Shown here: piece after piece, positions 3,992 to 40,362 of the stretch
How positions within the stretch are numbered: position 1 is the stretch's first letter
Layout: the number at the start of each line of letters is the position of its first letter
Assembly: GCA_963712855.1 (NCBI GenBank)
Contig: CAVQJN010000001.1
Coordinates: 742,747-806,746, forward strand
Source: Thermoanaerobaculia bacterium
GTDB taxonomy: Bacteria > Acidobacteriota > Thermoanaerobaculia > Multivoradales > JAGPDF01
Length of the DNA: 64,000 bases
Direction: 5' to 3'
The notes under the pieces: generated by a model
What the model was told of the DNA's origin: nothing
Database searches by the model: none
Seen by the model: only the letters and a program-made list of their open reading frames with translations
Program-made: the position numbers and the translations under genes

Positions 3992-5383
<1,392 letters not shown>

Positions 5384-8903: not shown

Positions 8904-9415
8904 GGGTGGAGCTTTCCGCCACGGTCCCGGTGGATCGAATGCGCTCGTGGCTCCCAACCGAATCGCGCGAGGTCGATCCGGCCGCCGGGCCCGAAGACGA
9001 CGCCCTCTTCCAGGAGCAAGAGCCGCTGCCGCGGCGCTCCGTCGAAGTCGCGTCGCGCGCTGATCTCACCTCGTGCGTTGACCACCCTCTGCCAAGGAAC
9101 GGACGTTCCCGCCGGCAGCGCGGCGAGCGCGTAGCCGACCTGGCGCGCCGCCCCCGGAAAACCCGCCAGGGCGGCCACCTGGCCGTAGGTGGCGACGCGG
9201 CCTCTCGGAATCGTCCGCACCACGGTCCAGATGCGACGCCAGCGCGACTCGTCGGACCCCGGCCGCCTCACCGCATCGGCTTCCGGCTTCGACTTCGGCG
9301 AGATCGATTGGACAGGAGAGGGCACGGCGGCCACCGTCGCGAGACCGGGCGATCCTGAGCCGGAGAGCCATGAACTGAGCGCCCCATCTCGAAGGCCCAC
9401 ACGGGCGCTCAGCAT
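8900..9415 (-). CDS. Alkyltransferase-like protein (ATL; MGMT-family DNA-binding domain lacking the active-site Cys)
   Basis: TIPRGRVATYGQVAALAGFPGAARQVGYALA...VPWQRVVNARGEIS: a Methyltransf_1N/DNA_binding_1 fold with PWQRV in place of the catalytic PCHRV. Start taken at Met 9415, since the upstream part of the long ORF is low-complexity. Confidence 0.6.
   Translation of the reverse strand: MLSARVGLRDGALSSWLSGSGSPGLATVAAVPSPVQSISPKSKPEADAVRRPGSDESRWRRIWTVVRTIPRGRVATYGQVAALAGFPGAARQVGYALAALPAGTSVPWQRVVNARGEISARRDFDGAPRQRLLLLEEGVVFGPGGRIDLARFGWEPRAHSIHRDRGGKLHP
9090..9255. repeat. Direct repeat partner (~165 bp) of 12795-12960, internal to the ATL gene
   Basis: Same >140-nt string in both places (…cgcgagcgcgtagccgacctggcgcgccgcccccggaaaacccgccagggcggccacctggccgtaggtggcgacgcggcctctcggaatcgtccgcaccacg…). 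Confidence 0.8.
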
Positions 9416-12609: not shown

Positions 12610-12794
12610 CTGCCGCGCCCAGCCGCCGGCGCCGAGGGGCCCCAGCGAGACGTTGGGGACGAGGTCGACGGTGAAGAGGGTGATGATGTTGGCCGAGAGA
12701 TCGCGGCGCTTTGCGCTAGAGGCCGGTTTTCCGGGGAAGGTGATCTCTATTTGCTTGCAAGGAGCAAAGCGGCCCGCTAGTTGGCGGGCCGTAA

Positions 12795-12960
12795 ACGACC
12801 GCCCCCGCCGGCAGCACCGCGAGCGCGTAGCCGACCTGGCGCGCCGCCCCCGGAAAACCCGCCAGGGCGGCCACCTGGCCGTAGGTGGCGACGCGGCCTC
12901 TCGGAATCGTCCGCACCACGCTCCAAATGACGCGCCAGCGCGAAGCTTCCGATCCAGGCG
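12795..12960 (-). pseudogene. Duplicated 5' fragment of the ATL gene (remnant)
   Basis: About 165 bp nearly identical to 9090-9255. It encodes ...RVIWSVVRTIPRGRVATYGQVAALAGFPGAARQVGYALA and then diverges, with no intact ORF context. Confidence 0.55.
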
Positions 12961-13117: not shown

Positions 13118-15568
13118 GTGACTGCTCGCCTCCGGTCGGCCGTGCATTTTGCATCTGTTCGCCATGTTGTCGCACTCTTGGTTGCTGCAGCCTTCTGCGT
13201 GGTGCTCACTCCGCGGCCGCTCCGCGGACAGGATGGCCTGCCGCCCGGAACTCCGCCTGACATCCAGAAGATCATCGAGAAGGCGAAGAGCGGCCAAGTG
13301 CCGACGCCGCAAGAGACCCAGCGGCTCATGGAGTGGGAGAAGCAGCTGGCGCAGAAGATGGGGGACCCGTCGCGCTCGGCCCCTCCGGGCAAAGTCGACA
13401 CCCAGTATGCGCCCGCCTCGATCGCTCGCGACGGCATCCCCTGCCGCCTGGAAGCGACGATCCACTACACGTTGCAGGCACCCGACGCCGACACGGTGAC
13501 GGGCCAGGCGAGCGCGTGGGCCGACGGGATGATGTACGCGACGATCGATGGCACCGACGACTACGTCAATTCCTCGGCCGATCCCTCCTCGCACGTTTCG
13601 ATCATCCGGATCGAGCCCCTCGCCAAGAACGGGAAGGCCGTGCTCGGCGGCGGCGGCAGCTACACGATCGAATCGGCCCACGACCGCATCTCGGCGACCG
13701 TGAAGCGGGCGGTCGGGGGAACGGTGCTGGTCAGCAGCGGGCACGGCGACGCGCTCATGGACGTGACAGGCCCGGAGATGTTCGGCGTCGAGGCCGAGGG
13801 CACGGAGTGCGGTTCCCAGGGTTGTCAGCCTTACAAGCACGACACCAACGGTGACTTTCTGGACGTCGCCTTCCCCTTCGCGATGGAGAAGCACCTCGAG
13901 GACGAGAACCAGACGGGCATCGGCAAGCCGATGCCTCAGCCCCCGCTCGCCATCTCGCTCGACCGCCTGAAGGCCGCCATCCAGGCCGGCGGATCGCAGT
14001 CGGTGAGCGGTTCGGAGAACTTCTCCTGGAAGACCGAGTACGAGACGGTCAACGGCAACAGCACCCTGAAGATCACGCTACGGCCCTCGCCCCTCCGGCT
14101 TCTGATCGACGAGCCCCTCGAGTATCCGGAGTGGTCGCCGGTGCCGTCATCCGACGACCCGGCGATCACGCAGCTCTTCGGCAAGGGATCCCGCCTGACC
14201 TTCCACGTCCGGCTGGTCACGAAAGACGGCAAGGAATCGGTGGTCGACCAGCCGATCGACTTCTACCTCGACGAGGTCAGCCACCACAAGGGCATCTGCT
14301 CCAACTATCCGAAGAGGAACGCGGACGACAAGCCGGATCTCCGGTTCACGTCGCCGGACGACGGGGTCTTCAACCAGGCGATCGAGATCGACCCGAAGGA
14401 TCCGAACCACGCCTACCTCAAGGCGCCCGCGACCGAGGCCGACGTCACCATCGAGGCGACCGACACCGGCGCCTACGGCAAGTTCCGCGCCGAGGCGAAG
14501 ACCCTTGGCCTCCTGAGCCTGGACGAGCGCACGGGCGAGAACTTCGTGCGTATCCCGATGGACGACGACAAGAACCACATCGCCGACGGATGGGCGAAGC
14601 GGCGCGGGGTCATGAACCTGCCGCCGACCTGGGACGAGGACGCGGTGCCCGCCGAGATGCCGCGCAAGGGCGACAGCCTGACGCTCTACGAGGAGTATCG
14701 CGGATTCGTCGTCGCGGATCCCCTGACTCAAGAGCCGCACTGGACGCGCCTGGAGACCCAGCGGCGCAAGACGTTCGTCTACCCGAAGAACGGCCACGAG
14801 GACTGGATTCGGGAGGGAGCGCGTCTGTTCGAGACGGTGACCGGCATCCGGGTCTACTTCGTGCCCGGAGACGACTACGTGAAGCCCGATCCGGCGCTCG
14901 ACAACAACCTGAACTGGATCAATTTCAACTCCGACCTCGACGACGGCATCGACTTCGGCCCCAAGGTCGACATCATCCCGATCGTCAACACGCCCGGCTA
15001 CATCTCCGACGATCCCAAGAATCCCGGGGTGCACGTCAACGGCCGCACGATGGCCGCGGGCGACAAGTACGGCAAGGAAGTTCCCGACGGTCCGTGGCAG
15101 CTCGACGAGATCCAGATCTTCCCGCAGAAGATCACCGCCAGCATGAACGACGAGGAGAAGCTCTACAGCGACCTGGCGGCGGGACACGGGACGGCGCCGC
15201 ACACGAAGGTGAACCTGGGCTATTACGGCGCCACCTTCCACGATGTCGCGACCGACATCCAGAAGGACTTCGCCGACATGGTGCACGATCTCTACGTCTT
15301 CAGCACGATGCACGAGATGGGTCACGCGCTGGGCGCGCATCACCACGACGAGGACCACCCGGAGATCGGCCCGCTCACCTGCCCGATGACCTACTGGTCC
15401 GGAAGGCGCGCGAACCTGCCCTTCTTCCTCGTCCTGTTCCATCCCAGCCGGACGGCGTGGTCCCTTCCCCCCGCCCCCGGCTCGACCGACAGCACTCCCG
15501 GTCCCGGCAGCGCCGCTCCCTGGAAGTTCTGCGCCGCGAGCTGGCAGCAGATGAAGCTGAAGCCGTAG
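13118..15568 (+). CDS. Secreted metzincin-like zinc metalloprotease (HExxHxxGxxH)
   Basis: 816 aa with N-terminal signal peptide (VVALLVAAAFCVVLTPRPLRGQ) and a C-terminal region carrying HEMGHALGAHHHDEDHPEIGPLTCPMTYW, which fits the metzincin HExxHxxGxxH motif. The preceding ~600 aa have no recognised fold. Confidence 0.7.
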   Translation: MTARLRSAVHFASVRHVVALLVAAAFCVVLTPRPLRGQDGLPPGTPPDIQKIIEKAKSGQVPTPQETQRLMEWEKQLAQKMGDPSRSAPPGKVDTQYAPASIARDGIPCRLEATIHYTLQAPDADTVTGQASAWADGMMYATIDGTDDYVNSSADPSSHVSIIRIEPLAKNGKAVLGGGGSYTIESAHDRISATVKRAVGGTVLVSSGHGDALMDVTGPEMFGVEAEGTECGSQGCQPYKHDTNGDFLDVAFPFAMEKHLEDENQTGIGKPMPQPPLAISLDRLKAAIQAGGSQSVSGSENFSWKTEYETVNGNSTLKITLRPSPLRLLIDEPLEYPEWSPVPSSDDPAITQLFGKGSRLTFHVRLVTKDGKESVVDQPIDFYLDEVSHHKGICSNYPKRNADDKPDLRFTSPDDGVFNQAIEIDPKDPNHAYLKAPATEADVTIEATDTGAYGKFRAEAKTLGLLSLDERTGENFVRIPMDDDKNHIADGWAKRRGVMNLPPTWDEDAVPAEMPRKGDSLTLYEEYRGFVVADPLTQEPHWTRLETQRRKTFVYPKNGHEDWIREGARLFETVTGIRVYFVPGDDYVKPDPALDNNLNWINFNSDLDDGIDFGPKVDIIPIVNTPGYISDDPKNPGVHVNGRTMAAGDKYGKEVPDGPWQLDEIQIFPQKITASMNDEEKLYSDLAAGHGTAPHTKVNLGYYGATFHDVATDIQKDFADMVHDLYVFSTMHEMGHALGAHHHDEDHPEIGPLTCPMTYWSGRRANLPFFLVLFHPSRTAWSLPPAPGSTDSTPGPGSAAPWKFCAASWQQMKLKP

Positions 15569-15647: not shown

Positions 15648-15953
15648 TCCGCTAGAGGCGAAAGGGTGCCAGGCGAATAGCTAGCTGGTCCCGGAGACAA
15701 ACCCCTCTTCGACCAGCTTCGCGGACGGCTTCGACGCCGGCGACGCGTGCAACTGGGAGACCCGGGTGCCCAATACGCCCTGCGCTAGCGAAAGGGTGCC
15801 AGGCGAATAGCAGGCGAAAGGGTGCCAGGCGAATAGCTAGCTGGTCCCGGAGACAAACCCCTCTTCGACCAACTTCGCGGACGGCTTCGACGCCGGCGAC
15901 GCGTGCAACTGGGAGACCCGGGTGCCCAATACGCCCGGAGTGAAAGGGTGCCA
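15648..15953. repeat. REP-like tandem repeat array (24-bp GCGAAAGGGTGCCAGGCGAATAGC motif x4, separated by two ~100-bp identical units)
   Basis: Motif at 15648, 15779, 15805 and 15930. The ~100-bp unit (tagctggtcccggagacaaac...gggtgcccaatacgccc) occurs at 15671-15770 and 15827-15926. The motif equals one terminal inverted repeat of the Y1-transposase element. Confidence 0.8.
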
Positions 15954-16140
15954 GGCGAATAGCTAGCCAAGCCCTTTGGGCATGGACGAATTCTCTCCTC
16001 TTGGGGGACCCACGTTGATCTCGTCCGTCTCGCGCAACGAGGCACATCGATCTCTAGGTACGGCCAAGGCGCCGAGAGACTCCTGACGGTCTCGAGAGCT
16101 CAACCTCGAAAGATCACACCCGCGCCCTTCCTGGGCCGCG
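15940..16140. repeat. 3'-end remnant (~200 bp) of a Y1-transposase element; second copy at 20980-21180
   Basis: Near-identical to 20980-21180, which is the 3' terminal region of the intact element copy 1. It is cut at ...ctgggccgcga by the IS3 insertion. Confidence 0.75.
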
Positions 16141-16205
16141 ATGACCTGCTCCCCGCAACTCGGCCCAGTGGGGAATGACACACTGGCCCGCGGAAGGGGT
16201 GAGCG

Positions 16206-16472
16206 ATGCGGAAGAGTCGGTACTCCGAGGAGCAGATCATTCGGGTGCTCCAGGAGGTCGAATCGGGCAAGACGGTTCGTGAGGTTTGCCGGGAGCATGG
16301 GATCGCGACCGGGACCTACTACGCCTGGAAGTCGAAGTTCGGCGGCATGGACGTCAACGAGGCGCGACGGCTCAAAGAGCTCGAGCTCGAGAATCGGCGT
16401 CTGAAGGCGGCGGTGGCGGACCTGACGCTCCGGGAGCAGGCACTGAAGGACGTGCTGTCAAGAAAATGGTGA
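16206..16472 (+). CDS. IS3-family transposase OrfA (HTH)
   Basis: 88 aa MRKSRYSEEQIIRVLQEVESGKTVREVCREHGI..YYAWKSKFGGMDVNEARRLKELE, typical IS3 OrfA with a leucine zipper. Confidence 0.85.
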   Translation: MRKSRYSEEQIIRVLQEVESGKTVREVCREHGIATGTYYAWKSKFGGMDVNEARRLKELELENRRLKAAVADLTLREQALKDVLSRKW

Positions 16473-17353
16473 CGCCCGCGGCCCGGCGTGCGGCGGTCCA
16501 TCTTCTCCGGGAGCGACACCAGCTGAGCGAGCGGAGTGCGTGTCGACTGATGAGCTACAGCCGCTCGTCGTACCGCCGCAAGAGTCTTCGCGCCGAGGCG
16601 GACAAGCCCCTGAGAGATCGCCTTCTGGCGCTTGCGTCGGAACGACCTCGCTACGGCTACCGCCGGTTGCACGTTTTCCTCGAGCGGGAGGGCTGGAGCA
16701 TCAACCGCAAGCGGGTCTACCGCGTGTATCGGGAGCTGGGCTTGGCCGTGCGGCGAAAGAAGCGCAAGCGCGTGGCTCAGGCGAATCGACAGCCCCGGGT
16801 CGTGCCGATCGCTCGTGACATTCAATGGTCGCTCGACTTCATGCGCGACACGCTGGCCAACGGCCGAGTCTTCCGCACGCTGAATGTCGTCGACGACGCC
16901 ACTCGGGAGTGCTTGGCGATCGAAGTCGACACCTCGCTCTCCGGTTATCGAGTCGGTCGCGTGCTGGACGCCGTAGCCCGCGAGCGAGGTCGCTACCCGA
17001 GCCGGATCGTCTTGGACAATGGCCCCGAGTGCACGAGCAAGGCGCTCGACCAGTGGGCCTACGATCACGGTGTCACGCTCGCCTTCATCCGCCCCGGGAA
17101 ACCGGTCGAGAACTGCTTCGTCGAGAGCTTCAACGGGAAGTTCCGCGACGAATGCCTCAACCTGCATTGGTTCCTCAGCCTGGCCGATGCGCGGCGCCGC
17201 ATCGAGGCTTGGCGCTTGGATTTCAACTTCGTCCGACCACACAGTAGCTTCGACGGCCGGCCCCCCGCCGTGGCGGCGCGCGAGGCGTGGCTCCACCCGG
17301 CTACGCCGGCTTCCGCCACGCCTCGACCAGGGGCTAGGTACCAGGGAAAATGA
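16466..17353 (+). CDS. IS3-family transposase OrfB (DDE integrase core), expressed by -1 frameshift from orfA
   Basis: rve domain: ...WSLDFMRDTL...RTLNVVDDATRECLAIEVD...DNGPECTSKAL...PGKPVENCFVESFNGKFRDECLN (D, D, E triad). Frame is -1 relative to orfA; the putative slippery region AAGAAAATGG lies near 16455-16470. Confidence 0.8.
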   Translation: MVTPAARRAAVHLLRERHQLSERSACRLMSYSRSSYRRKSLRAEADKPLRDRLLALASERPRYGYRRLHVFLEREGWSINRKRVYRVYRELGLAVRRKKRKRVAQANRQPRVVPIARDIQWSLDFMRDTLANGRVFRTLNVVDDATRECLAIEVDTSLSGYRVGRVLDAVARERGRYPSRIVLDNGPECTSKALDQWAYDHGVTLAFIRPGKPVENCFVESFNGKFRDECLNLHWFLSLADARRRIEAWRLDFNFVRPHSSFDGRPPAVAAREAWLHPATPASATPRPGARYQGK

Positions 17354-17400
17354 ATCGCGAGTGTCCAGTTGGTGGTGGTGTCAACCTGGGGAGCAGGTCA

Positions 17401-17470
17401 GGCCCACGACATTCTCAATAGACGGAATCCAACGCCCAGATTCCTCGCTATTCGGGTGGCACCTTTGTCG
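17401..17470. repeat. 5'-end remnant of the Y1-transposase element (tnp start plus terminal IR), abutting the IS3
   Basis: ggcccacgacattctcaatagacggaatccaacgcccagattcctcgctattcgggtggcacctttgtc is a diverged copy of 22140-22210 and 23070-23140 (tnp start codon region plus terminal repeat). Confidence 0.65.
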
Positions 17471-20551: not shown

Positions 20552-20743
20552 CGGTACGTCGTGTCGCGTGGGTTAGTTCGAATGCAGGGCGGCTCATAGG
20601 CATCGTCTCGACTGGAGAATACTCTTCTCTCGCGCTTCTGCAAGCTACTGACAGGTTCTGTCAGTGGGTGCCTCTTCGAGCATTCCGCTGAGCGATTTGT
20701 AGCGCAACAGGTTTCGAAAGAAGAGGTGGCCTGTGACCTGCTA

Positions 20744-20800
20744 CCCAGGTTGACACCACCACCAACTGGACACTCGCGATTCATTTTCCATGAGTCCCGG
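20744..20800 (-). mobile_element. Solo inverted copy of the IS3 terminal repeat (remnant)
   Basis: TGACCTGCTACCCAGGTTGACACCACCACCAACTGGACACTCGCGATTCATTTTCC is the reverse complement of IS3 right end 17345-17400 with one mismatch in the first 13 nt. Similarity decays after ~55 bp. Confidence 0.7.
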
Positions 20801-20974
20801 CCTCGGGTCGAGGTGCCGGAAGAGTGCCAGACGAATAGCGAATAGCAGTGGCTGCCTAGAGGGCGTGTGCCGGGCACCATCTGCAAACCATTACTGACCT
20901 TGGGCTTCTATGGAGGAGGAGCACGCCCATGCCTCTGTTCATGAGGCGAAGCAACCAAATTTGGTTCAGAGTAG

Positions 20975-22210
20975 CGAAAGGGTGCCAGGCGAATAGCTAG
21001 CCAAGCCCTTTCGGTATGGACGCATTCTCTCCTTTTGGGGGACCCACGTTGATCTCGTCCGTCTCGCGCAACGAGGCACATCGATCTCTAGGTACGGCCA
21101 AGGCGCCGAGAGACTCCTGACGGTCTCGAGAGCTCAACCTCGAAAGATCACACCCGCGCCCTTGCTGGGCCGCGACCCGCCTTGCTGCTGGCTCCGGACC
21201 TCTGTAGGCGAGCGAGTCTCTCTAGCTACGTCGCGGCCTGAACCCCGCGAAACGGCAAGGCCGGCGGGAAGCACCCTTGGGGAAATCCCACGTCGAGCTG
21301 ACCCGCGCGGAATCGCTCGGAGGAACGGCGGAAAGCCGCCAGGAAGGTCGCGTAGGCGTCGCGGACCTGCCTCCGAACCTGCCGCGAGTAGGCGTGGATC
21401 AGCGGAGCGGGCCCCTTCTTGATCCGGTTCGGCTCGAAGTGAGGATCCTGGCGCAGTACGAATGAACGGCCGGCAGCCGATCGCCCCGTCTCAGCCGCCT
21501 TCCGGGCGGTCTCCTGCTCGATGCCCTGGATCATCTCTGCGATTCGGCTCCGATACTGCTCGTCGTCGAGCCCGGCCCAACAGGGAATCGGGACGAGCTG
21601 GAGAGATTCCTCCTCGACCAGATCCCGCGGTTGGAGAGCGATCCCTTTGCGACTCGCCGTGTACTCGAGCGTATGGTTGATCCAACGACCGCGGACCGAC
21701 GATCCCGACAGGAGAAAGGGAGCCGCGTGGGCACCCGGCCATTCCTTGGGCGAGCGAACCAGGCCTTCCTTGGATCCGTGACCGAGGAGGTAATGCAAGC
21801 GTGCCACCTGGCTCGCTTCGTCGTCCGAGACGAGGATCGCCTGATACCTGCGTCCCCAGAACTTCTCGCGCCAGCGAATGAGCCGGCCCGCCTCACGGGC
21901 CAGATTCGAGTTGAGATAGCCCATGAAGGCGGCGAGGCGCTGTGCGTCGGGGACAGTGAGCAGAAGGTGGAAGTGATTGGAGAGAAAGGCGAAGGCATGA
22001 ACCCGCACCGGATAGAGGCGGGCTGCCCGTGCGAGAACGCCGAGCGTCAGGTCTCGGAGAATGGGGCTCGGCCGCAAGAGCAGACGCCCCTGAACCGTGC
22101 GACAGGTGACCTCGACGAGCGAGCCCGGCGGAACGAAGCGGATCCTTCGGCCCATGACACGCTCAACAGACGGAATCCAAGGCCCAGATTCCTCGCTAGT
22201 CGGGTGGCAC
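20975..22210 (-). mobile_element. Y1/HUH (IS200-like, COG1943/RAYT-like) transposase element, copy 1, with imperfect ~25-bp terminal inverted repeats
   Basis: Left terminus GCGAAAGGGTGCCAGGCGAATAGCTAGC versus right terminus (reverse complement) GAGAAAGGTGCCACCCGACTAGCG. It contains a single tnp gene, and the same termini recur as solo REP-like motifs. Confidence 0.65.
21226..22155 (-). CDS. Y1 HUH transposase (IS200/IS605-like TnpA domain with ~180-aa C-terminal extension)
   Basis: HUH motif SNHFHLLL, FMGYLNSNL, and catalytic-Tyr region KFWGRRYQAILV in the N-terminal ~130 aa. 309 aa in total. Confidence 0.7.
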   Translation of the reverse strand: MGRRIRFVPPGSLVEVTCRTVQGRLLLRPSPILRDLTLGVLARAARLYPVRVHAFAFLSNHFHLLLTVPDAQRLAAFMGYLNSNLAREAGRLIRWREKFWGRRYQAILVSDDEASQVARLHYLLGHGSKEGLVRSPKEWPGAHAAPFLLSGSSVRGRWINHTLEYTASRKGIALQPRDLVEEESLQLVPIPCWAGLDDEQYRSRIAEMIQGIEQETARKAAETGRSAAGRSFVLRQDPHFEPNRIKKGPAPLIHAYSRQVRRQVRDAYATFLAAFRRSSERFRAGQLDVGFPQGCFPPALPFRGVQAAT

Positions 22211-23066
22211 CTTTCTCTCCGAACCGCTCGGAGGAACGGCGGAAGGCCGCCAGGAAGGTCGCGTAGGCGTCGCGGAGCTGCCTCCGGACCTCCCGTGAGT
22301 GGGCGTGGATCAGCGGAGCCGGTCCCTTCTTGATCCGGTTCGGCTCGAAGTGAGGATCCTGGCGCAGTACGAATGAACGGCCGGCAACCGATCGCTTCGT
22401 CTCAGCCGCCTTGCGTGCGGCCTCCTGCTCGATTCCCTGGATCATCTCTGCGATTCGGCTCCGATACTGCTCGTCGTCGAGCCCGGCCCAACAGGGAATC
22501 GGGACGAGCTGGAGAGATTCCTCCTCGACCAGATCCCGCGGTTGGAGAGCGATCCCTTTGCGACTCGCCGTGTACTCGAGCGTATGGTTGATCCAACGAC
22601 CGCGGACCGACGATCCCGACAGGAGAAAGGGAGCCGCGTGGGCACCCGGCCATTCCTTGGGCGAGCGAACCAGGCCTTCCTTGGATCCGTGACCGAGGAG
22701 GTAATGCAAGCGTGCCACCTGGCTCGCTTCGTCGTCCGAGACGAGGATCGCCTGATACCTGCGTCCCCAGAACTTCTCGCGCCAGCGAATGAGCCGGCCC
22801 GCCTCACGGGCCAGGTTCGAGTTGAGATAGCCCATGAAGGCGGCGAGGCGCTGTGCGTCGGGGACGGTGAGCAGAAGGTGGAAGTGATTGGAGAGAAAGG
22901 CGAAGGCATGAACCCGCACCGGATAGAGGCGGGCTGCCCGTGCGAGAACGCCGAGCGTCAGGTCTCGGAGAATGGGGCTCGGCCGCAAGAGCAGACGCCC
23001 CTGAACCGTGCGACAGGTGACCTCGACGAGCGAGCCCGGCGGAACGAAGCGGATCCTTCGGCCCAT
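22047..23066 (-). CDS. Y1 HUH transposase, copy 2 (3' end replaced where copy 1 abuts; altered C-terminus)
   Basis: Protein identical to copy 1 over ~280 aa (one or two substitutions). Homology ends at 22211, where the 5' terminus of copy 1 begins, and the ORF reads on into copy 1 sequence. Confidence 0.6.
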   Translation of the reverse strand: MGRRIRFVPPGSLVEVTCRTVQGRLLLRPSPILRDLTLGVLARAARLYPVRVHAFAFLSNHFHLLLTVPDAQRLAAFMGYLNSNLAREAGRLIRWREKFWGRRYQAILVSDDEASQVARLHYLLGHGSKEGLVRSPKEWPGAHAAPFLLSGSSVRGRWINHTLEYTASRKGIALQPRDLVEEESLQLVPIPCWAGLDDEQYRSRIAEMIQGIEQEAARKAAETKRSVAGRSFVLRQDPHFEPNRIKKGPAPLIHAHSREVRRQLRDAYATFLAAFRRSSERFGEKGATRLARNLGLGFRLLSVSWAEGSASFRRARSSRSPVARFRGVCSCGRAPFSET

Positions 23067-23141
23067 GACACGCTCAACAGACGGAATCCAAGGCCCAGAT
23101 TCCTCGCTAGTCGGGTGGCACCTTTCTCCGGTGGTGGTCAA
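22211..23141 (-). mobile_element. Y1 transposase element copy 2 (3'-truncated, tandem to copy 1)
   Basis: Contains the same 5' terminus (22... ggtggcacctttctc at 23127-23141) and tnp gene. Its 3' ~90 bp and terminal repeat are missing. Confidence 0.6.
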
Positions 23142-24462
23142 CCAGCCGATCGACTTCTACCTCGACGAGGTCAGCCACCACAAGGGCATCTGCTCCAACT
23201 ACCCGAAGGGGAACGCGGACGACAAGCCGGATCTCCGGTTCACGTCGCCGGACGAAGGGGTCTTCAACCAGGCGATCGAGATCGACCCGAAAGATCCGAA
23301 CCACGCCTACCTCAAGGCGCCCGCGACCGAGGCCGACGTCACCATCGAGGCGACCGACACCGGCGCCTACGGCAAGTTCCGCGCCGAGGCGAAGACCCTG
23401 GGCCTCCTGAGCCTGGACGAGCGCACGGGCGAGAACTTCGTGCGCATCCCGATGGACGACGACAAGAATCACATCGCCGACGGATGGGCCAAGCGGCGCG
23501 GGGTCATGAACCTGCCGCCGACCTGGGACGAGGACGCGGCGCCCGCCGAGATGCCGCACAAGGGCGACAGCCTGACGCTCTACGAGGAATATCGCGGATT
23601 CGTCGTCGAGGATCCCCTGTCACAGCAAGCGCATTGGACGCGATTGGAAACCAAGCGTCGGAAGACCTTCGTTTATCCCAAGAACGGCCACGAGGACTGG
23701 ATCCGCGAAGGAGCGCGCCTGTTCGAGACGGTGACCGGCGTCCGCGTCTATTTCGTCCCGGGAGACGACTACGTGAAGCCCGACCCGGCGCTCGACAACG
23801 GGTTGAACTGGATCAACTTCAACTCGGACCTCAACGACGGCATCGACTTCGGTCCGAAAGTCGACATCATCCCCATCGTGAACACGCCCGGCTACGTCTC
23901 GGACGACCCGAAGCACCCGAAAGTCCACGTCTTCGGCCGCACCATGGCCGCGGGCGACAAGTACGGCGTGCAGGTCCCGGACGGCCCCTGGCAGCTCGAC
24001 GAGATCCAGATCTTTCCGCAGAAGATCACCGCCAGCATGAACGACGAGGAGAAGCTCTACAGCGATCTGGCGGCGGGACACGGGACGGCGCCGCACACCA
24101 AGGTGAACCTCGGTTACTACGGCGCCACCTTCCAGGACGTCGCGACCGACATCCAAAAGAACTTCGGCGCCATGGTGCACCAGCTCTATGTCTTCAGCAC
24201 GATGCACGAGATGGGACACGCCCTGGGCGCGCGCCACCACGACGAGGACCACCCGGAGATCGGCCCGCTCACCTGCCCGATGACCTACTGGTCGGGCCGC
24301 CGCGCCAACCTGCCTTTCTTCCTCGGGCGCTTCGACCCCGACAAGACCGCCTGGACCTTTCCCGCCTCCCCCGACGGATCCGACGACACCCCCGGCCCCG
24401 GCAACGCGTCCCCCTGGTCCTACTGCCAGACGAGCTGGAGCCAGATGAAGCTCAAGCCGTGA
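23141..24462 (+). pseudogene. 3' fragment of a paralogous metzincin-like protease gene, 5'-truncated by the Y1-element insertion
   Basis: Roughly 440 aa that are ~85-90% identical to residues ~375-816 of the 13118-15568 protein, including HEMGHALGARHHDEDHPEIGPLTCPMTYW. Homology starts exactly at the element boundary at 23141. Confidence 0.7.
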
Positions 24463-24576: not shown

Positions 24577-25545
24577 TCAGGGGGCAACGACGGTCGCCGA
24601 CCACCAGGAGGTGTCGCCACTCTCGAAGCCATCCGACATCAGGGGCGGGATGTAGAGATTGTAGAGCGAGTTCTCAATCATGGTCGCGTGGTCCTGGAAG
24701 AAGATCGCCCAGACGGAACCGGTGAACCAGACACCGAGCACGTGGGCGCTGCTCACCAGCACGGGCCCGGCCCTCGCCACGAAGACGACGGCGCCCGCTC
24801 GTCCGTTGAGCTCGGGGTGGTCGAGAAAGGTGGAGTTGCCGCTGTTCGTCCCCGCCGATGCGAAATGCTCGAAGCTCCACCCCAGCGAGCTGGCGATGTC
24901 CGGGGACTTCGCGATCAGGACGTTGAAGAACACTCCCGTGGGCATCAGGTCGAGGCAGCAGCTATCTGCGTTCTCGGTGACGATGGAGTAGCTGGGACTA
25001 CCGTAGACGATCGAGGAGTGGTGGTTGAACGACCCGCCAGGAATCCCCTCGAAGGTAGCGGTGTGGGTGTAGAGCATCAGCGTCGAGCTGGGACAGAGCA
25101 GACAGTCCGGATCGATCGGATTCAGCCGCGTCGCGCGGCCTGAGGTGTTGATGTCGTTCGATAGGTGGACGAAGGAGAGCGAATCGCCGCCCATCACGAG
25201 GACGTTGAACGCCGCGCCCACCGGAATCGCCGTGGCGTCCTCGTTGTAGATATACCAACTGCCGCCACCCGAGTAATTGGCGATGAAGACCACGCCGACC
25301 TCGTGGTCGTTGTAGACGCCAGAACCGAGCGGCGGATTCCAGTTCTGGGTGACCAGCAACCGCGCGTCCGGGTTGTCGTTGAGCTGCGGATGGTCGAGCT
25401 TCGTGTACTCGTCGTGGGACCCCGAGATGTTCGCGGCGGTTGCGACGTGCACGTACGAGACGAGACTCTCCCCGGCAACCGGCGCGACCGACAGGACCGA
25501 CAACGCCGCCAGGATCAGCCCGGCCAAACCCGCGTTAGCTTTCAT
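24577..25545 (-). CDS. Secreted protein with internal tandem duplication and C-terminal DGFESG..W motif
   Basis: Signal peptide MKANAGLAGLILAALSVLSVAPVAG; two related ~130-aa halves (LDHPQLNDNPDARLLV... / LDHPELNGRAGAVVFV...); C-terminus ...MSDGFESGDTSWWSATVVAP. Confidence 0.5.
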   Translation of the reverse strand: MKANAGLAGLILAALSVLSVAPVAGESLVSYVHVATAANISGSHDEYTKLDHPQLNDNPDARLLVTQNWNPPLGSGVYNDHEVGVVFIANYSGGGSWYIYNEDATAIPVGAAFNVLVMGGDSLSFVHLSNDINTSGRATRLNPIDPDCLLCPSSTLMLYTHTATFEGIPGGSFNHHSSIVYGSPSYSIVTENADSCCLDLMPTGVFFNVLIAKSPDIASSLGWSFEHFASAGTNSGNSTFLDHPELNGRAGAVVFVARAGPVLVSSAHVLGVWFTGSVWAIFFQDHATMIENSLYNLYIPPLMSDGFESGDTSWWSATVVAP

Positions 25546-31228: not shown

Positions 31229-34200
31229 ATGAATAGGCAGCCGGGGTCATCTCAGTCCGTCCGTGTTCTCCTGATTCTGCTGATAGCGTTCGTCGGATCG
31301 CAGACAGCAGCGAGATCCGACCCGCCTCAGTTGTATGCGTTCACAGGCGATCCTACGCCCCTCGGGACTCGCACTCCCTTGATCCTGATTCATGGTCTTC
31401 AACCGAATTGCGACGAGACATACGAAGGAGTCTGGGCAAACTTCGTGTGGAACGAGTGGGCGAACAACGTCGAACTCCGACAGAAGACAAAAGTGTACCT
31501 ATTGAGGTACGAAACCGTCCAAGGAAAACTGGCATCCGGCGACCCTACAAACGTTGCATCTGTGGCTACAGCTCTCGGTGAGCAACTGGAGTCGAGTCAA
31601 CAATTCCCTGAGTTCTCGGGAAAGGACTTTCTCTTAGTCGCGCACTCCTTGGGTGGTCTAGTCGCCAGGTCCTTCATGCAGCAATTCCGATTCTCTGATG
31701 GAACTCTGGGGGGGGCCCGAGTCCTCAGGCTGATTACTTTAGCCACTCCACACCATGGCAGCCCAATTGCCAACATAGCTGAAGGCTACCCATCGGTCTG
31801 GTGCCTCACTCCTAGCAACGGATTTCTTCAAGACCTTTCATGGGATGCGTACGATGGCTTCCTCTTCCTCTTGGATCCGTGCAACCCCTGGTTAGGAAGC
31901 TTGAATATCAGCGGAGGCGCGCCCTCATATGCCACTCAAGCGTGCGCATATCAGGACGTACCTGGAGAAGATGGTGAGTTCTCGAAAATCTTCGCCTACG
32001 GCGGCGAGACGACACCTCTCGCTGCCACGCTCGATTTCGTTCTCTCGAATTCACTATTGAATGCGCGCGGATACGAGCACAATGACGGTCTAGTGCCGCT
32101 TGGTAGCGCTCTATTCGACGGGGTATCCCTTGGCGCCAAACGCACGGTAATCGCTCCCTGTAACCATGGCCAGATCGTTGGTGGATCGTGCAGCGTCATC
32201 TATGACAACGGAGATATTGCCAGTGTCTTTGACGCGGTGGCCAATGATCTGCTAGCAGCGCTTAACGAGGATCCAACACCAGTCATCATGTCGGTAAGCC
32301 CCAGCGTCTTGGCAACTGAGCCACTTCCTCAGACACAGCGTTTGACGATTTCAGGGAGTGATTTTGCGCCTGACGCCACTCTGACGTTCTTTGACGGAAG
32401 TTCCCACTATGTGGGGCGATCTCCCATTCCGCCAGTACAGCCTAACCAACTTCAATACGACATTGCTGCGGGCCCGTACGAAGGTGCTTGGACTGTCCAG
32501 GTGGTTAACGGCACGAAGGCTTCGAACGAATTTCCGTTCTGGGTTGTCGACACGCCGGGCAACGACGACACAGCACCACCCGCACCGATCGACCCACAGA
32601 TGTCACCAGCATCCTGGGGCAACCCAATTCTCTTCTACCTCGACTGGGCGAATCCAGCCGATCCCTCTGGAGTCACCAAAGTCTGGTGGAAGTGGGACAG
32701 CCCGCCCACATTTCAGGGTGACGGCATTGGACTTGCCCTCCCACTCTTCAAACCGCTCCCCGTTGCACCTGTCACAGAGGGTGCGCGAACGATCTATTTC
32801 TGGCTTGAGGATGGGAGTGGAAACTCCGATTTCCACAACTGGGCCAGTGCCACCGCTTACTACGATGTAACTGCGCCGTCGCTCTCGATTGACGAGAGTC
32901 CGGACGGTTCCCCCATTCAGATCGCCAGCAGCCAGCTGATCTTGCACGGGTCGGCCACGGACAACCTCAGCGGCGTCGGTGGCATTAGCTGGATGAGCAA
33001 CCGCGGTGGTACAGGAGGCGCAACGGGGACAACCAACTGGTCAACGTCATCGATCCTGCTTGCTCCAGGCGACAACGTGATCACTGTCTCAGCCACTGAC
33101 CGCGCGGGCAACTCGGCATCCGAATCGCTTACCGTGACCTCGACCGCCCAGCCATCGGCCTGCGGTCCCTGGGAGTGGGACTCACCAGTGTCGAACGTGG
33201 CGAGCGCCGCTGCCTATGGGGATGGCAAGTGGGTGGCAGTCGGCTACAGCGGTGCGATCTGGACGAGTCCGGATGGGGTCACTTGGACTCCGCAGACGAG
33301 CTCAGTGGCCCAGAGCCTCAACGACGTCATCTGGACCGGCAGTCAGTTTATGGCGGTCGGTAACAACGACACGATCCTGACCAGCCCGGATGGGGTGAAC
33401 TGGCAGGTCGTGAGGTCCTCATCGGTCTTTAACTACTACGGCGTGGCCTGGAACGGATCGCAGTATGTGCTCGTGGGTCGTGGGGCCTCCCCGACAACGA
33501 CGAGCCGGGGTTGGATGTGGACGAGCTCGGACGGCGCGGTCTGGACACAACGCTTCTACGACCCTGACACCAACTACAGATCACCGATCTGGAGCGGGAC
33601 GTTGTTCGCCCTGCTCGACAACAAGGGCAACGTCTACACCAGCCCGGACGGCGCCAACTGGACCAGCCAAAACATCTCGGCCACGGGATTGAACGACGTC
33701 GCCTGGAGTGGCACCGAGTACCTCATCACCCAGGGCACCACCGTCTACACCAGCCCCGACGCCGTCACCTGGACTCCTCACTCCATCACTCCTTCGCTCA
33801 GCCACGTGATCTGGGCCGGCAACCGCTTCGTAGCAACCAGCGGTCCTCAGATCTGGTCGAGTGCGGACGGGCTGAGCTGGACATTGGAGACCACCGACGG
33901 CAATGGCGACATCAACGACCTTGCCTGGAGTGGCAACCAAGCCATCGCGGTCAGTGGTGGAGAGTCCTTCTGGAGGCAGAGCTGCACGCTTCCCGCTGCG
34001 GATTTCCGCTTCAGTCCGGCTACACCGTTGCGCAACCAGCCGGTCGCCTTCTTCGACCAGTCCACCGCTAGTCCGACGGCCTGGAGCTGGGACTTCGGCG
34101 ACGGCCAGGGAAGCTCGCAGCAGGATCCGACCCACACCTATGGCCAAGGTGGCGTCTACTCGGTGAGCCTCGCCGCGACCAACGCCTTCGGCACGGACAG

Positions 34201-37200
34201 CACCCAGCAGCAGATCACCGTCTCGCTACCGACCAGCCCGTGCAGCCCCTGGGAGTGGGACGCCCCGGTGGCGAGCCCGGTCAACGCGGCGACCTACGGC
34301 AATGGCCAGTGGGTGGCGGTGGGCAATTCCGGATGGATCGGGACGAGCCCGGATGGGGTGACCTGGACGCAGCAGACGAGTCCGGTCACGACCAAGCTGC
34401 TCGATGTCATCTGGACGGGCAGCCAGTACATGGCAGTCGGCTTCGCCGGCACGATCCTGACGAGCCCGGACGGAGTCACTTGGCAAGCCAGCAACAGCAT
34501 CTCCGGCGTTTACGACCTCTATAGCGTAGTCTGGAGCGGCTCACAGTACCTGCTCGTGGGAAGACTCCCGAGCACCACGAGGAGCTATGTTTGGACGAGC
34601 TCGGACGGTCACGTCTGGGCCCAACGTCTCTATGGACCTGACACCACGTACCTCCATCCGATCTGGAGTGGGACGCTCTTCGTCCTGCTCGACAACAAGG
34701 GCAACGTCTCCACCAGTCCGACGGGCGCGAACTGGACGACCCAGAACATCTCGGCCAGCGGATTGAACGAAGTGGCTTGGAGCGGCACCGAGTACCTGAT
34801 CACCCAGTGGACCACGGTCTACACCAGCCCCGACGCCGTCACCTGGACTCCTCACTCCATCACTCCTTCGCTCAGCCACGTGATCTGGGCTGGCAACCGC
34901 TTCATTGCCGCCGGAGGAACCGGGACGACACAGATCTTCTCCAGTCCCGATGGACTCAACTGGACCTTGGAGACCACCGACGGTAATGGCGGCATCAACG
35001 ACTTGGCTTGGAGTGGCAATCAAGCCGTGGCGGGTGCAGGAGCTTCTTTCTGGACCCAGAGCTGCACAATTCCGACAGCCGACTTCCGCTTCAATCCGGC
35101 AGCACCTCTACGCAACCAACCTGTCGCCTTCTTCGACCTCTCCAGCGCCAATCCAACGTCATGGAGCTGGGACTTTGGTGACGGCCAGGGGAAGCTCCCA
35201 GCAGGATCCGACCCACACCTATGGCCAAGGTGGCGTCTACTCGGTGAGCCTCGCCGCGACCAACGCCTTCGGCACGGACAGCACCCAGCAGCAGATCACC
35301 GTCTCGCTACCGACCAGCCCGTGCAGCCCCTGGGAGTGGGACGCCCCGGTGGCGAGCCCGGTCAACGCGGCGACCTACGGCAATGGCCAGTGGGTGGCGG
35401 TGGGCAATTCCGGATGGATCGGGACGAGCCCGGATGGGGTGACCTGGACGCAGCAGACGAGTCCGGTCACGACCAAGCTGCTCGATGTCATCTGGACGGG
35501 CAGCCAGTACATGGCAGTCGGCTTCGCCGGCACGATCCTGACGAGCCCGGACGGAGTCACTTGGCAAGCCAGCAACAGCATCTCCGGCGTCTACGACCTC
35601 TATAGCGTGGTCTGGAGCGGCTCACAGTACCTGCTCGTGGGAAGACTCCCGAGCACCACGAGGAGCTATGTTTGGACGAGCTCGGACGGTCACGTCTGGG
35701 CCCAACGTCTCTATGGACCTGACACCACGTACCTCCATCCGATCTGGAGTGGGACGCTCTTCGTCCTGCTCGACAACAAGGGCAACGTCTCCACCAGTCC
35801 GACGGGCGCGAACTGGACGACCCAGAACATCTCGGCCAGCGGATTGAACGAAGTGGCTTGGAGCGGCACCGAGTACCTGATCACCCAGTGGACCACGGTC
35901 TACACCAGCCCCGACGCCGTCACCTGGACTCCTCACTCCATCACTCCTTCGCTCAGCCACGTGATCTGGGCTGGCAACCGCTTCATTGCCGCCGGAGGAA
36001 CCGGGACGACACAGATCTTCTCCAGTCCCGATGGACTCAACTGGACCTTGGAGACCACCGACGGTAATGGCGGCATCAACGACTTGGCTTGGAGTGGCAA
36101 TCAAGCCGTGGCGGGTGCAGGAGCTTCTTTCTGGACCCAGAGCTGCACAATTCCGACAGCCGACTTCCGCTTCAATCCGGCAGCACCTCTACGCAACCAA
36201 CCTGTCGCCTTCTTCGACCTCTCCAGCGCCAATCCAACGTCATGGAGCTGGGACTTTGGTGACGGCCAGGGGAGCTCCCAGCAGGATCCGACCCACACCT
36301 ATGGCCAAGGTGGCGTCTACTCGGTGAGCCTCGCCGCGACCAACGCCTTCGGCACGGACAGCACCCAGCAGCAGATCACCGTCTCGCTACCGACCAGCCC
36401 GTGCAGCCCCTGGGAGTGGGACGCCCCGGTGGCGAGCCCGGTCAACGCGGCGACCTACGGCAATGGCCAGTGGGTGGCGGTGGGCAATTCCGGATGGATC
36501 GGGACGAGCCCGGATGGGGTGACCTGGACGCAGCAGACGAGTCCGGTCACGACCAAGCTGCTCGATGTCATCTGGACGGGCAGCCAGTACATGGCAGTCG
36601 GCTTCGCCGGCACGATCCTGACGAGCCCGGACGGAGTCACTTGGCAAGCCAGCAACAGCATCTCCGGCGTCTACGACCTCTATAGCGTGGTCTGGAGCGG
36701 CTCACAGTACCTGCTCGTGGGAAGACTCCCGAGCACCACGAGGAGCTATGTTTGGACGAGCTCGGACGGTCACGTCTGGGCCCAACGTCTCTATGGACCT
36801 GACACCACGTACCTCCATCCGATCTGGAGTGGGACGCTCTTCGTCCTGCTCGACAACAAGGGCAACGTCTCCACCAGTCCGACGGGCGCGAACTGGACGA
36901 CCCAGAACATCTCGGCCAGCGGATTGAACGAAGTGGCTTGGAGCGGCACCGAGTACCTGATCACCCAGTGGACCACGGTCTACACCAGCCCCGACGCCGT
37001 CACCTGGACTCCTCACTCCATCACTCCTTCGCTCAGCCACGTGATCTGGGCTGGCAACCGCTTCATTGCCGCCGGAGGAACCGGGACGACACAGATCTTC
37101 TCCAGTCCCGATGGACTCAACTGGACCTTGGAGACCACCGACGGTAATGGCGGCATCAACGACTTGGCTTGGAGTGGCAAGGAGTTGGTTGCCGGAGGAG

Positions 37201-38381
37201 GCGCTGGCGCAATCGGAACGCAGGGCTGCAACGATGCTGTGGATCTCCAGGTCACTGGGCCCTCGGTGAGCTCCACCTCTCCAGAACCCGGTTCAGATCT
37301 TGTCGTCTACATGACCGCCTCGAACCTCGGCACAGATCCCAGCAATGCAACTACGCTGGTTTACTACCGCTCATCGGATGCCGTGATCTCCTCCGCCGAT
37401 ACGGAGATCGGTCAGGACTCGATCTCCAGCTTGGCCGGTGGGGCGAGCTCTCCACAGAATCTGCAGACAACTGCCCCGAGCAGCGACGGGACGTACTGGT
37501 TTGGAGCCTGCATCCTGCCAACTGGCGATGAGTCCAATGTATCCAACAATTGTTCGACCGGAGTTGAGGTTGATGTGGTGTCCCACCCCGACCTCGTCGT
37601 CATTGACCCGTCAGTCGACAACGCGGCCCCAGCACAGGGACAGCAGATCACTATCCACGCGACCGCCAAGAATTCAGGAATCGCCGCATCAGCTGCGACA
37701 AACCTCACTTACTACCTCTCCCCGGACCCGACAATCACTTCTGGCGACACGTCGCTCGGTCAGAAATCCGTCCCAGCGCTGTCGCCAAATGGCACCTATC
37801 CGGACAGCCTTCAGACTACTGCGCCGCCCGCCACAGGCAACTATTGGCTTGGCGCATGCGTTCAGTCTGTCAGTGGTGAGACCAATGTCTCCAACAACTG
37901 TTCGACCGGCGTGGAGATTCAAGTTGGGCCCGCTTGCACAGACGATGAATTCGAGCTCCTCGGGAGCGACAACTCTGATGACACCTGCTACGGCGCCAGC
38001 GTCGTGCCAGGAGTCGCGCAGCAACATCTTCACTGCGACGAAGACTGGGTTCGCTTCGTGCCAGATGCAGGAGCTACCTACCGCATCGAGACTTCATCCC
38101 TAACTGGTGGAGCCGACACAACACTCGCGCTACACCAAGACTGTGGTCAGCAGCAGTTGGCGTTCAACGACAACTTCACAGGCCTCGCATCACGAATCGA
38201 CTGGACCGCTACAGGTACCGCGCCGATCGATATCAGAATCCAAGAAAGGGCCGGTACTTACGCAACTGGGGAGGGCTACACCATCTCCGTGTCTTGCATC
38301 GCCGGATGCGCGCCCGTCCCAATCTTCGCCGACGGCTTCGAGGACGGCACTCTTTGCGCATGGTCGAACGGAGGATGCTAG
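31229..38381 (+). CDS. Giant secreted multidomain protein: alpha/beta-hydrolase (lipase-like) + Ig-like domains + 4x [BNR/Asp-box beta-propeller + PKD] + 2x CARDB + PPC-like C-terminal domain; single frameshift near 35192
   Basis: Signal peptide; ILIHGL...VAHSLGGLVAR (GxSxG serine hydrolase). Repeated YG(D/N)G(K/Q)WVAVG...TSPDGVTWT (SxDxGxTW Asp-boxes) blocks, each followed by PKD (WDFGDGQ...THTYGQGGVYSVSLAATNAFG). CARDB-like segments at 37230-37900. C-terminus ...IFADGFEDGTLCAWSNGGC. ORFs 31229-35605 and 34905-38381 differ by a 1-nt insertion (GGGGAAGCT versus GGGGAGCT in the other copies). Confidence 0.75.
34221..37180 (+). repeat. Near-perfect tandem repeat, unit 1080/1081 bp, ~2.7 copies (preceded by a more diverged copy from ~33150)
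   Basis: The same >100-nt strings recur at 34264, 35345 and 36425 (offsets 1081 and 1080). Each unit encodes one beta-propeller plus PKD module. Confidence 0.9.
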
Positions 38382-38657
38382 CTAGCCGAACCTTGCTCTT
38401 CCACCGAAGTAGTCCGCTTGAGGTATCCAATATGGAACAAGCCTAGGCGTTCTTCGCTTCTTACCTACTTCTCCCGTCCGATCAGACTGCCGGGAAGAGA
38501 CCGAACCTTTGACCTGCTCCCCGCAACTCGGACCAGTGGAAATCAACAACCCCACAAGATGGGCTCTTGAGCTTGCGAGATCGCCCCAAAGCGGTCGACC
38601 CCAAGTCTTCTGAGGGGTACATTAGAGGTATCCTCAGCCTGACGAGCCACAAGCCCT

Positions 38658-39917: not shown

Positions 39918-40338
39918 TCCGGGCACGCCGCGCGCCTCCTCTCTTCAGGCAGCGAAGAGGATGCGTGCAACCCGACAGCGGGACACCAAAGCAGAGATGG
40001 CCATTCGTTCAGCCCTTCACCGGATGGGTCTGCGGTATCGAGTGCAGGCGAGTCCGATTCCCGGTTCGAGGCGCCGTGCAGACATCATCTTCCTGAAGGA
40101 GAGGGTTGCCATCTTCGTCGACGGCTGCTTCTGGCACGGCTGTCCGGAGCATGCCTCGACGCCCCGCGTCAATCGCGCTTGGTGGGTGGAGAAGCTAGCG
40201 GCGAATCGACGCCGCGACCGAGATACTGACCATTGCCTGGCGGCGGCCGGTTGGACAGTCTTGCGCTTCTGGGAACACGAGGATCCTCTCGCCGTCGCCA
40301 ATGGGGTCCGAAACCTGGTGATCTCCAAGCGGAAGTGA
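39910..40338 (+). CDS. vsr: Very-short-patch repair endonuclease Vsr
   Basis: FVDGCFWHGCPEH...W and the overall 142-aa Vsr pattern. Overlaps the dcm stop by 8 bp. Confidence 0.9.
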   Translation: MANPGTPRASSLQAAKRMRATRQRDTKAEMAIRSALHRMGLRYRVQASPIPGSRRRADIIFLKERVAIFVDGCFWHGCPEHASTPRVNRAWWVEKLAANRRRDRDTDHCLAAAGWTVLRFWEHEDPLAVANGVRNLVISKRK

Positions 40339-40362
40339 ACTCTGCTCGAGGGGCCTTCGCAG

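Follow-up and report, generated by a model that had tools for sequence, protein, structure and literature searches.

Sortase- and exosortase-type signals consist of a signature motif, a hydrophobic transmembrane helix and a basic cluster, in that order. In the LPXTG/sortase, PEP-CTERM/exosortase, GlyGly-CTERM/rhombosortase and MYXO-CTERM systems, numerous unrelated proteins with a signal peptide end in such a short signature; signals of this type occur in one lineage, on many paralogous carriers per genome, and are interchangeable with other anchors. The C-terminal domain of the T9SS (PF18962), which folds as a beta-sandwich of 70-100 residues and does not span the membrane, likewise tags adhesins and enzymes with Sec signal peptides. 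The discovery of new sorting machinery has repeatedly started from C-terminal tags peculiar to one lineage, as with sortases, exosortases, rhombosortase and the T9SS. Among mobile repeats, REPs are scattered through a genome in many extragenic copies, form a palindromic hairpin with GTAG or CGTC on its 5' side, and typically have a single-copy RAYT for each REP family. The REP/REPIN-RAYT systems (Bertels & Rainey, PMC3116915, PMC3337134; see also PMC5581495) combine a Y1 HUH transposase gene with short inverted repeats that flank it and that are also found in intergenic and tandem positions. A GTAG directly 5' of the stem characterizes the GTAG-tagged REPs (PMC3733652).

The segment at 15656-15967 of the window, by which we mean the whole 64-kb stretch of DNA analysed, has features of both kinds of system. 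We consider it probable (roughly 0.7) that two things are superimposed there: a lineage-specific C-terminal tail of ~20 residues, and the 3' fragment of a lost gene which is bracketed by RayT REPs and was duplicated.

A six-frame scan of the 64 kb for DGF[ED]xG returned four sites only, all lying 16-28 codons 5' of a stop: one in a giant PKD/CARDB surface protein, one in a DUF7452 protein and one in each of two repeat units. Looser patterns applied to the window gained nothing comparable. The original prediction had proposed that two secreted proteins and a repeated remnant share this motif, and the scan located both tails and the repeat-unit peptide and confirmed that they do. The tail of the giant protein (38322-38381, + strand) reads IFADGFEDGTLCAWSNGGC followed by the stop, the longer end up to 38381 being PIFADGFEDGTLCAWSNGGC, and its Asp is placed 16 residues from the end, the canonical register. 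The DUF7452 protein (24577-25545, - strand) ends in LMSDGFESGDTSWWSATVVAP at 24577-24642, or over a longer stretch in PLMSDGFESGDTSWWSATVVAP, and has a register of 18 residues as against 16 in the giant protein. The N-termini of both proteins are signal-peptide-like.

The giant gene (31229-38381) consists of two overlapping ORFs, 31229-35605 and 34905-38381, and contains units of ~1080 nt whose sequences agree at 100% over some stretches. These units are spaced by 1081 and 1080 nt, so that the frameshift is explained by a 1-nt indel between units; the split gene is either a pseudogene or an assembly error within the repeat. Position 9 of the tail, which is Ser in the consensus, is Cys both in the giant protein (38331-38378) and in the fragment U of the repeat segment (15724-15771), and each has a second Cys further downstream. 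These two may represent a disulfide-bearing subtype of the tail.

A tail profile (A2) was built from nine tails. Exhaustive search of 1.84 billion representatives with this nine-tail profile matched 3513 proteins at E<=1e-3. Among the best 150 of these 3513, the Asp was exactly 16 residues from the end in 70, 63 of which end in VP, while 13 more end within 11-22 residues and 66 have internal copies only. The same profile in a word-indexed search of a 5.8-billion-sequence set recovered 120 short proteins; in about 112 of these, whose upstream sequences are unrelated, the DGFE Asp stands at exactly -16 from the C-terminus; all nine organism-named matches of that search were to Acidobacteriota, several of them to Thermoanaerobaculia. 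Six-frame scans of four other contigs placed every motif match 16 codons before a stop. The consensus of the terminal class is [IL]FADGFESGDTSAWSxxVP-COOH, and the tail is occasionally doubled in tandem with a period of 21 residues.

Analysis of 12 tail-coding sequences indicated that Ser is encoded by both TCN and AGY, and Gly and Pro by four codons each, with an identity of 0.77 at codon positions 1 and 2 and of 0.53 at position 3. This synonymous variety, together with the higher identity at positions 1 and 2 than at position 3, shows that selection acts on the tail at the protein level. The possibility that tail-coding DNA is a dispersed recombination repeat drew little support, since within one genome these sequences are 46-88% identical and exact runs are mostly <=15 nt. 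The Pfam scan found no model covering the terminal tail, searches of PDB sequences with the tail profile and an internal-class protein returned no chain, and literature searches on the motif and on sorting in Thermoanaerobaculia found no searchable paper that covers the tail. The profile searches, together with the checks on carriers described below, thus support a conserved tag, locked in position and common to unrelated exported proteins, as had been predicted; the tail is a real, large and lineage-specific family that is apparently undescribed.

The carriers contain PKD, CARDB, DUF11, cadherin-like, beta-helix and DUF7452 domains. A crude test of hydrophobicity assigned signal-peptide-like N-termini to 14 of 24 long carriers; the other ten failed this heuristic, and most of those look N-terminally truncated. 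In the AlphaFold2 model of the DUF7452 protein the domain has a pLDDT of ~95, while the last 22 residues have values of 35-59 and are undocked. Like the sortase- and exosortase-type signals, the tail is short, sits at the very end of numerous unrelated proteins with signal peptides, belongs to one lineage, has many paralogous carriers per genome, and is interchangeable with other anchors on the same domain family. It differs from them in having neither helix nor basic cluster: DGFESG is followed only by DTSAWSxxVP, without any hydrophobic stretch or Arg/Lys cluster, that is, by 11 mostly polar residues after the second Gly, ending in VP-COOH. It also differs in having no NCBIfam match and no known partner enzyme. 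Comparison with the NCBIfam sorting-signal models matched none to the tail, and the NCBIfam scans gave no match for the window proteins at E<=1 or for tails and carriers at E<=10.

The likeness to the T9SS C-terminal domain lies in the absence of a membrane-spanning segment, in the tagging of adhesins and enzymes with Sec signal peptides, and in the site that is occupied: homologues of the DUF7452 protein end in the DGFESG tail, in a T9SS Por_Secre_tail (PF18962), in K-[VI]-Y-L-P-L-[VI]-[LM]-R ('YLPLVLR') or in nothing. Against the folded 70-100 residues of that domain, the tail has ~20 residues, is predicted to be unstructured and shows no sequence similarity to it, and Pfam and NCBIfam scans found no PF18962/TIGR04183 T9SS domain in the carriers. 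The K-[VI]-Y-L-P-L-[VI]-[LM]-R ending is present on many DUF7452 homologues (P0008-P0034 and others) at the position of the DGFESG or T9SS ends, and two somewhat similar matches are named Anaerolineae; it may be a second undescribed lineage-specific tag.

Since the tail is restricted to a lineage, sits on many exported paralogues and is interchangeable with the T9SS domain, we infer by analogy that it would be recognized as a tag once the protein has been exported, and would serve surface retention, outer-membrane passage or processing. Of the "sorting or anchoring tag" first proposed, the C-terminal tag stands, while a function in sorting or anchoring is suggested by these likenesses, no NCBIfam sorting-signal model matching the tail. 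A more specific proposal, which we put forward tentatively and at less than even odds, is that DGFESG...VP-COOH may be a new sorting or anchoring signal of diderm Acidobacteriota: short, with no transmembrane segment, with a free C-terminus read by a machinery, derived from the first strand of a jelly roll, possibly acting by strand complementation with a surface receptor, and with coding ends that are recurrent breakpoints of mobile elements.

The relation to jelly-roll domains comes from a second, internal class of the motif. Proteins of this class have 2-6 copies, each at the head of a 190-290-residue unit, and the last of these copies lies ~182-203 residues before the protein end. Pfam aligns the internal copies to profile positions 1-3 of Polysacc_lyase (PF14099), CBM_4_9 and related ConA-like models, which identifies them as the first jelly-roll strand. 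The units that follow match ConA-like models weakly; one protein of the class (P0282) exceeds the Polysacc_lyase cut-off of 29.9 bits, with a score of 31.9. In ConA-like jelly rolls (PF14099, CBM_4_9 PF02018, Laminin_G_3 PF13385) the pattern FxDGFESGxLxxW[ST] opens domains in multi-domain proteins and is matched by the same profile, and the full beta-sandwich extends over ~130-210 residues; the terminal tail, on the contrary, ends 16 residues after the Asp, with no domain. In sequence, the tail thus resembles the beta-strand with which ConA-like jelly-roll domains begin, and it probably derives from that strand.

It might then be asked whether the tail has any function, or is a vestige of truncated ConA-like domains, reduced to their first strand and spread by recombination or by descent. 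The identity of the internal class with the N-terminal strand of jelly rolls and the unstructured state of the tail in the AlphaFold2 model are in line with a vestige. We nevertheless regard it as very unlikely, because the end point is the same residue in thousands of unrelated proteins (VP, with the Asp at -16), because the terminal copies have a signature of their own (DTS and VP-COOH, where internal copies have DLS or NLS and then ...xG...), and because synonymous codons turn over while the amino acids are conserved. Moreover, no domain-like sequence follows the stops: in one locus (L012) a convergent stop is 11 nt away, and an intergenic scar follows the giant gene. Read-through from tail stops into a downstream jelly roll was ruled out, the DNA there being intergenic or a convergent gene. 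In the L012 locus, at 5001-5169, an orphan tail ORF (+) faces the tail of a convergent 222-aa gene (-), their ends being 11 nt apart.

The tail could also be a structural or binding module that works without dedicated machinery, such as a Ca2+-, glycan- or LPS-binding beta-hairpin by which proteins would be kept at the cell surface, or a donor strand completing the incomplete jelly roll of a partner. Its acidic and aromatic residues (D, E, D; F, F, W), its resemblance to the first strand of CBM and ConA-like folds, its occasional doubling in tandem and the lack of a membrane-spanning segment agree with such a module. No partner was identified, however, the model gives no stable fold for the tail alone, and the strict free C-terminus fits carboxylate recognition at least as well, so that a binding module appears unlikely. 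The reading that we prefer remains that of a tag selected as a peptide.

The repeat segment at 15656-15967 has the layout M-U-M-(AGGC)-M-U-M with a period of 156 bp, which refines the units of ~100 bp described earlier; the tail peptide bounded by TAG codons was found as described. M is the 22-nt sequence GAAAGGGTGCCAGGCGAATAGC, with five exact copies and one 3-mismatch variant in the window and none in 100 shuffles. The first copy, M1 (15660-15681, + strand as is the rest of the segment), is an exact match in which the 3' hairpin arm is missing; TAGC comes next, and then the first orphan 3' gene fragment, U1 (15682-15789), with codons from 15685 and the tail FADGFDAGDACNWETRVP at 15718-15771, followed by NTP. 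M2 (15790-15811) is exact and gives the in-frame TAG that closes the frame of U1; M3 (15816-15837), also exact, starts 26 bp after M2, and the two form a tandem REP pair. U2 (15838-15941) is 99% identical to U1. The last copy, M4, opens 15939-16140, which comprises a possible hairpin GAAAGGG...CCCTTT (15942-15977) and ~200 nt that match the 3' flank of the RayT gene at 97% identity. The closing TAG had been placed inside the REP-like motif; this is correct for the first unit, where it lies inside GCGAATAGC, but in the second it falls just after the motif.

In frame +2, the stretches 15685-15808 and 15841-15966 encode LVPETNPSST[S/N]FADGFDAGDACNWETRVPNTP... between in-frame TAG codons. U thus encodes DGFDAGDACNWETRVP, the full 16-residue register (Asp plus 15, ending in VP), and continues with NTP... 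without a stop. It comprises 28 codons including the complete tail, has no start codon and has lost its own stop, and in its core 20 of 21 third codon positions are G or C. The original view of the repeat unit as a coding remnant is supported by the full register and these third positions. The 5' boundary of U lies exactly after ...AATAGC TAGC, where an intact REP runs on into its hairpin, and the 3' boundary lies ~10 nt beyond the end of the tail register. U1 and U2 measure 108 and 104 nt, differ by one SNP (S to N) and have different 3' junctions, TGCGCTAGC and GGAGT respectively; as these junctions differ, a single simple tandem duplication is insufficient and more than one event is required.

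No Rfam ncRNA, promoter or terminator was found in 15.3-16.3 kb, and the repeat region folded as single-stranded DNA no better than shuffles (z = -0.3). We also considered whether U had been displaced from the end of the metalloprotease gene upstream; both paralogues of that gene end in ...MKLKP and a stop, and similarity fades past the stop, so this origin gains no support. Read from its sequence, the segment 15656-15967 is an ordinary pseudogene fragment and not a gene, presumably what remains of the 3' end of a tail-bearing gene that has been lost.

The source of M was found downstream in the window. An ORF of 309 aa (21226-22155, - strand) matches Y1_Tnp (PF01797) with 28.1 bits against a cut-off of 23, and H61-F-H63 and Y122 (LHYLLGHGSKEGLV) are visible in its sequence. 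It belongs to a complete RayT unit (20973-22224, -) with an M copy at 20976-20997 (+), the Y1 gene and an inverted variant, M', at 22195-22210. A second, tandem RayT copy (22047-23135, -) is 3'-truncated, with a Met at 23063 and its own M' at 23106-23121. M' (GTGCCACCCGA[AC]TAGC) lies upstream of each RayT copy (22195 and 23106), with a further occurrence at 17447; M and M' flank the tandem RayT pair (21.2-23.1 kb) in inverted orientation. A degenerate copy with three mismatches lies at 20818-20839 (+). M opens the 203-nt segment 15939-16141, which shares 97% identity with 20973-21175, where the 3' flank of the 309-aa ORF lies, and a remnant of the RayT 5' flank (17401-17469, -) carries the inverted M' GTGCCACCCGAATAGC at 17447-17462. 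The window has nine REP copies, all within 15.6-23.1 kb. A 20-mer of the REP scanned against collections of genome and metagenome contigs met only chance matches, in a Serratia chromosome and in an rpoA-rpsD hairpin.

Homologues of the RayT protein, 60-81% identical, are annotated "REP element-mobilizing transposase RayT" or "transposase [Thermoanaerobaculia bacterium]". At two homologue loci (L016 and L019) inverted AGGTGCCAGCCGATT or AAGGTGCCACCCGA flank the gene with the GGTGCCA core seen in the window, and further copies with this core are present in intergenic DNA away from the gene. At 9022-9090 of L019, three tandem REPs (AAGAGGTGCCAGCCGATTCTC) spaced by 23-25 bp lie in intergenic DNA 3.9 kb from the RayT homologue, an arrangement that resembles the M2-M3 pair of the window. 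A paralogue (P0364) that is 81% identical is located on the same 1.66-Mb contig.

The locus agrees with REP-RAYT systems in that a Y1 HUH transposase gene is flanked by inverted short repeats, which at homologue loci are intergenic and tandem as well. It recalls the GTAG-tagged REPs in that the RayT-proximal copy, at 20972, bears a GTAG immediately before its 8-bp stem, CGAAAGGG...CCCTTTCG, with a loop of 23 nt; this is the only copy to do so. The fold of that copy is marginally better than shuffles (z-score -1.05), and M1-M3 have no second arm. The differences are that the core shows hardly any palindromy and the second stem arm is missing from most copies, that the RAYT, of ~309 aa, is present as a tandem pair plus an 81% paralogue where a single copy per REP family is typical, and that a coding fragment trapped between REPs is unusual. 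The tie to the adjacent RayT-type Y1 transposase speaks for the 22-24-nt motif as a genuine REP. The assignment of the "REP-like" motif was thus strengthened by the PF01797 gene with its inverted repeats and by the like arrangement at homologue loci, and the sequence evidence supports M as the putative REP of the adjacent RayT, with copies seen at 15.6-23.1 kb of the window.

The second U-M unit is followed by an IS3-family insertion sequence (16141-17400, +) with orfA at 16206-16472 and orfB at 16286-17353. Its terminal inverted repeats, TGACCTGCTCCCC and GGGGAGCAGGTCA, are perfect over 13 bp, and no target duplication is present. The element occupies the place of the RayT body, with the 203-nt piece on one side and the M' piece (17401-17469) on the other. 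Solo IS3 ends were also seen: an inverted right end of 80 nt at 20734-20813 adjoins the degenerate REP at 20818, and a left-end fragment, TGACCTGCTCCCCGCAACTCGG..., at 38510-38541 lies ~130 nt past the stop of the giant gene. The sequence 23133-24462 is a truncated, 98% identical copy of the 3' two-thirds of the metalloprotease gene (14239-15568 of the gene at 13118-15568), and abuts the REP end of the second RayT copy (23135), which makes another joint of a REP end with internal sequence. Upstream of the island, 9098-9263 and 12794-12959 form a direct repeat of 166 nt with 90% identity, 3.7 kb apart. The island itself (13-38 kb) is rich in mobile elements and holds the two metalloprotease paralogues, the IS3 element, the RayT elements and the tail carriers. 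Type IV pilus genes occupy 0-5.4 kb of the window. Directly after the island, from 38.6 kb, a DISARM-like defence locus (38658-50421) encodes a C-5 cytosine methylase (38658-39917), a helicase-C protein (42135-45419) and a DrmE-like protein (47170-50421).

The original prediction went on to suggest that the REP could be a vehicle for 3'-end exchange, carrying a tail-coding cassette and swapping or donating 3' ends between secreted-protein genes, with the U fragments as silent donor cassettes. U is indeed bracketed by REPs and duplicated with them, and the REP-U break exactly after ...AATAGC TAGC is compatible with site-specific cutting. Yet the tail is the conserved part of its carriers, so that swapping it would create no diversity. 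Tail-coding DNA is 46-61% identical between loci of the window, U being 61% identical to the tail of the giant gene and 51% to that of the DUF7452 gene, with exact runs of <=11 nt. The DUF7452 gene end has no REP, and no intact gene of the window has a REP-borne tail. The sequence TAGCTAGCC (9 nt) that follows the stop of the giant gene could be taken as a trace of exchange; the TAGCTAGC noted there earlier is present, but as one extra match of an 8-mer with 0.28 expected per window it is not significant and weighs little. The RayT homologue loci that we examined have REPs without tail fragments. Exchange by the REP is on these grounds very improbable.

Orphan tails of other genomes bear on the same question. 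Tail-only short ORFs sit inside long contigs of other metagenome assemblies. In one (L004) a displaced duplicate of 105 nt (92%) of the neighbouring gene end is parted from that gene by an inserted AbiE toxin-antitoxin islet, an arrangement that might favour exchange; it proved to be a duplicated convergent gene junction, and not a site-specific event at the tail. An integration scar as the origin of the L004 orphan tail was rejected for the same reason, both sides of the convergent junction being duplicated. The AbiEii/AbiEi islet lies between the two copies of the junction in several metagenomes (L004 2769-5397, L006 3-2428), flanked on one side by the 105-nt tail-coding end and on the other by 172 nt of the end of a GFO_IDH_MocA gene, and leaves an orphan tail ORF of 48 aa that is conserved on nine contigs. 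The other orphan tails examined are decayed genes and none involves REPs. Orphan tails are common by-products of turnover, produced by assorted duplications and gene decay; as they arise elsewhere without REPs, the vehicle idea gains no support from them.

We return to the reading of a tail family and a REP-bracketed fragment. The tail is carried by many unrelated Sec-exported proteins of Thermoanaerobaculia-type Acidobacteriota, mostly adhesin-like proteins or enzymes, and is selected as a peptide, locked to the free C-terminus and undocked on the preceding domain. The usual position of a REP is just downstream of a gene. We infer for the fragment an order of events in which a REP would have been located just downstream of a tail-bearing gene; the body of that gene would have been lost at a second REP-associated break, leaving the last 28 codons and ~10 nt of 3' flank; and the REP-plus-fragment unit would then have been duplicated in tandem. 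The duplication may have proceeded by REP-to-REP recombination, by slippage or by aberrant RayT cutting after ...AATAGC TAGC. The anatomy of the segment, the tail family with its C-terminal register, the constraint at the protein level and the link between RayT and REP are shown by these analyses; the sorting function, the sequence of events and the mechanism of duplication are proposals built on them.

The orphan fragment is minor in itself and shows the fast turnover of tail-bearing genes in islands rich in mobile elements. With the REP/RayT pair, a REP family from outside the proteobacteria is added, whose core is weakly palindromic. In an acidobacteriotal class that has been little studied and is mostly uncultured, thousands of proteins predicted to be secreted or at the surface bear the tail; a tail profile would improve their annotation and, through co-occurrence, would give a handle on the partner system.
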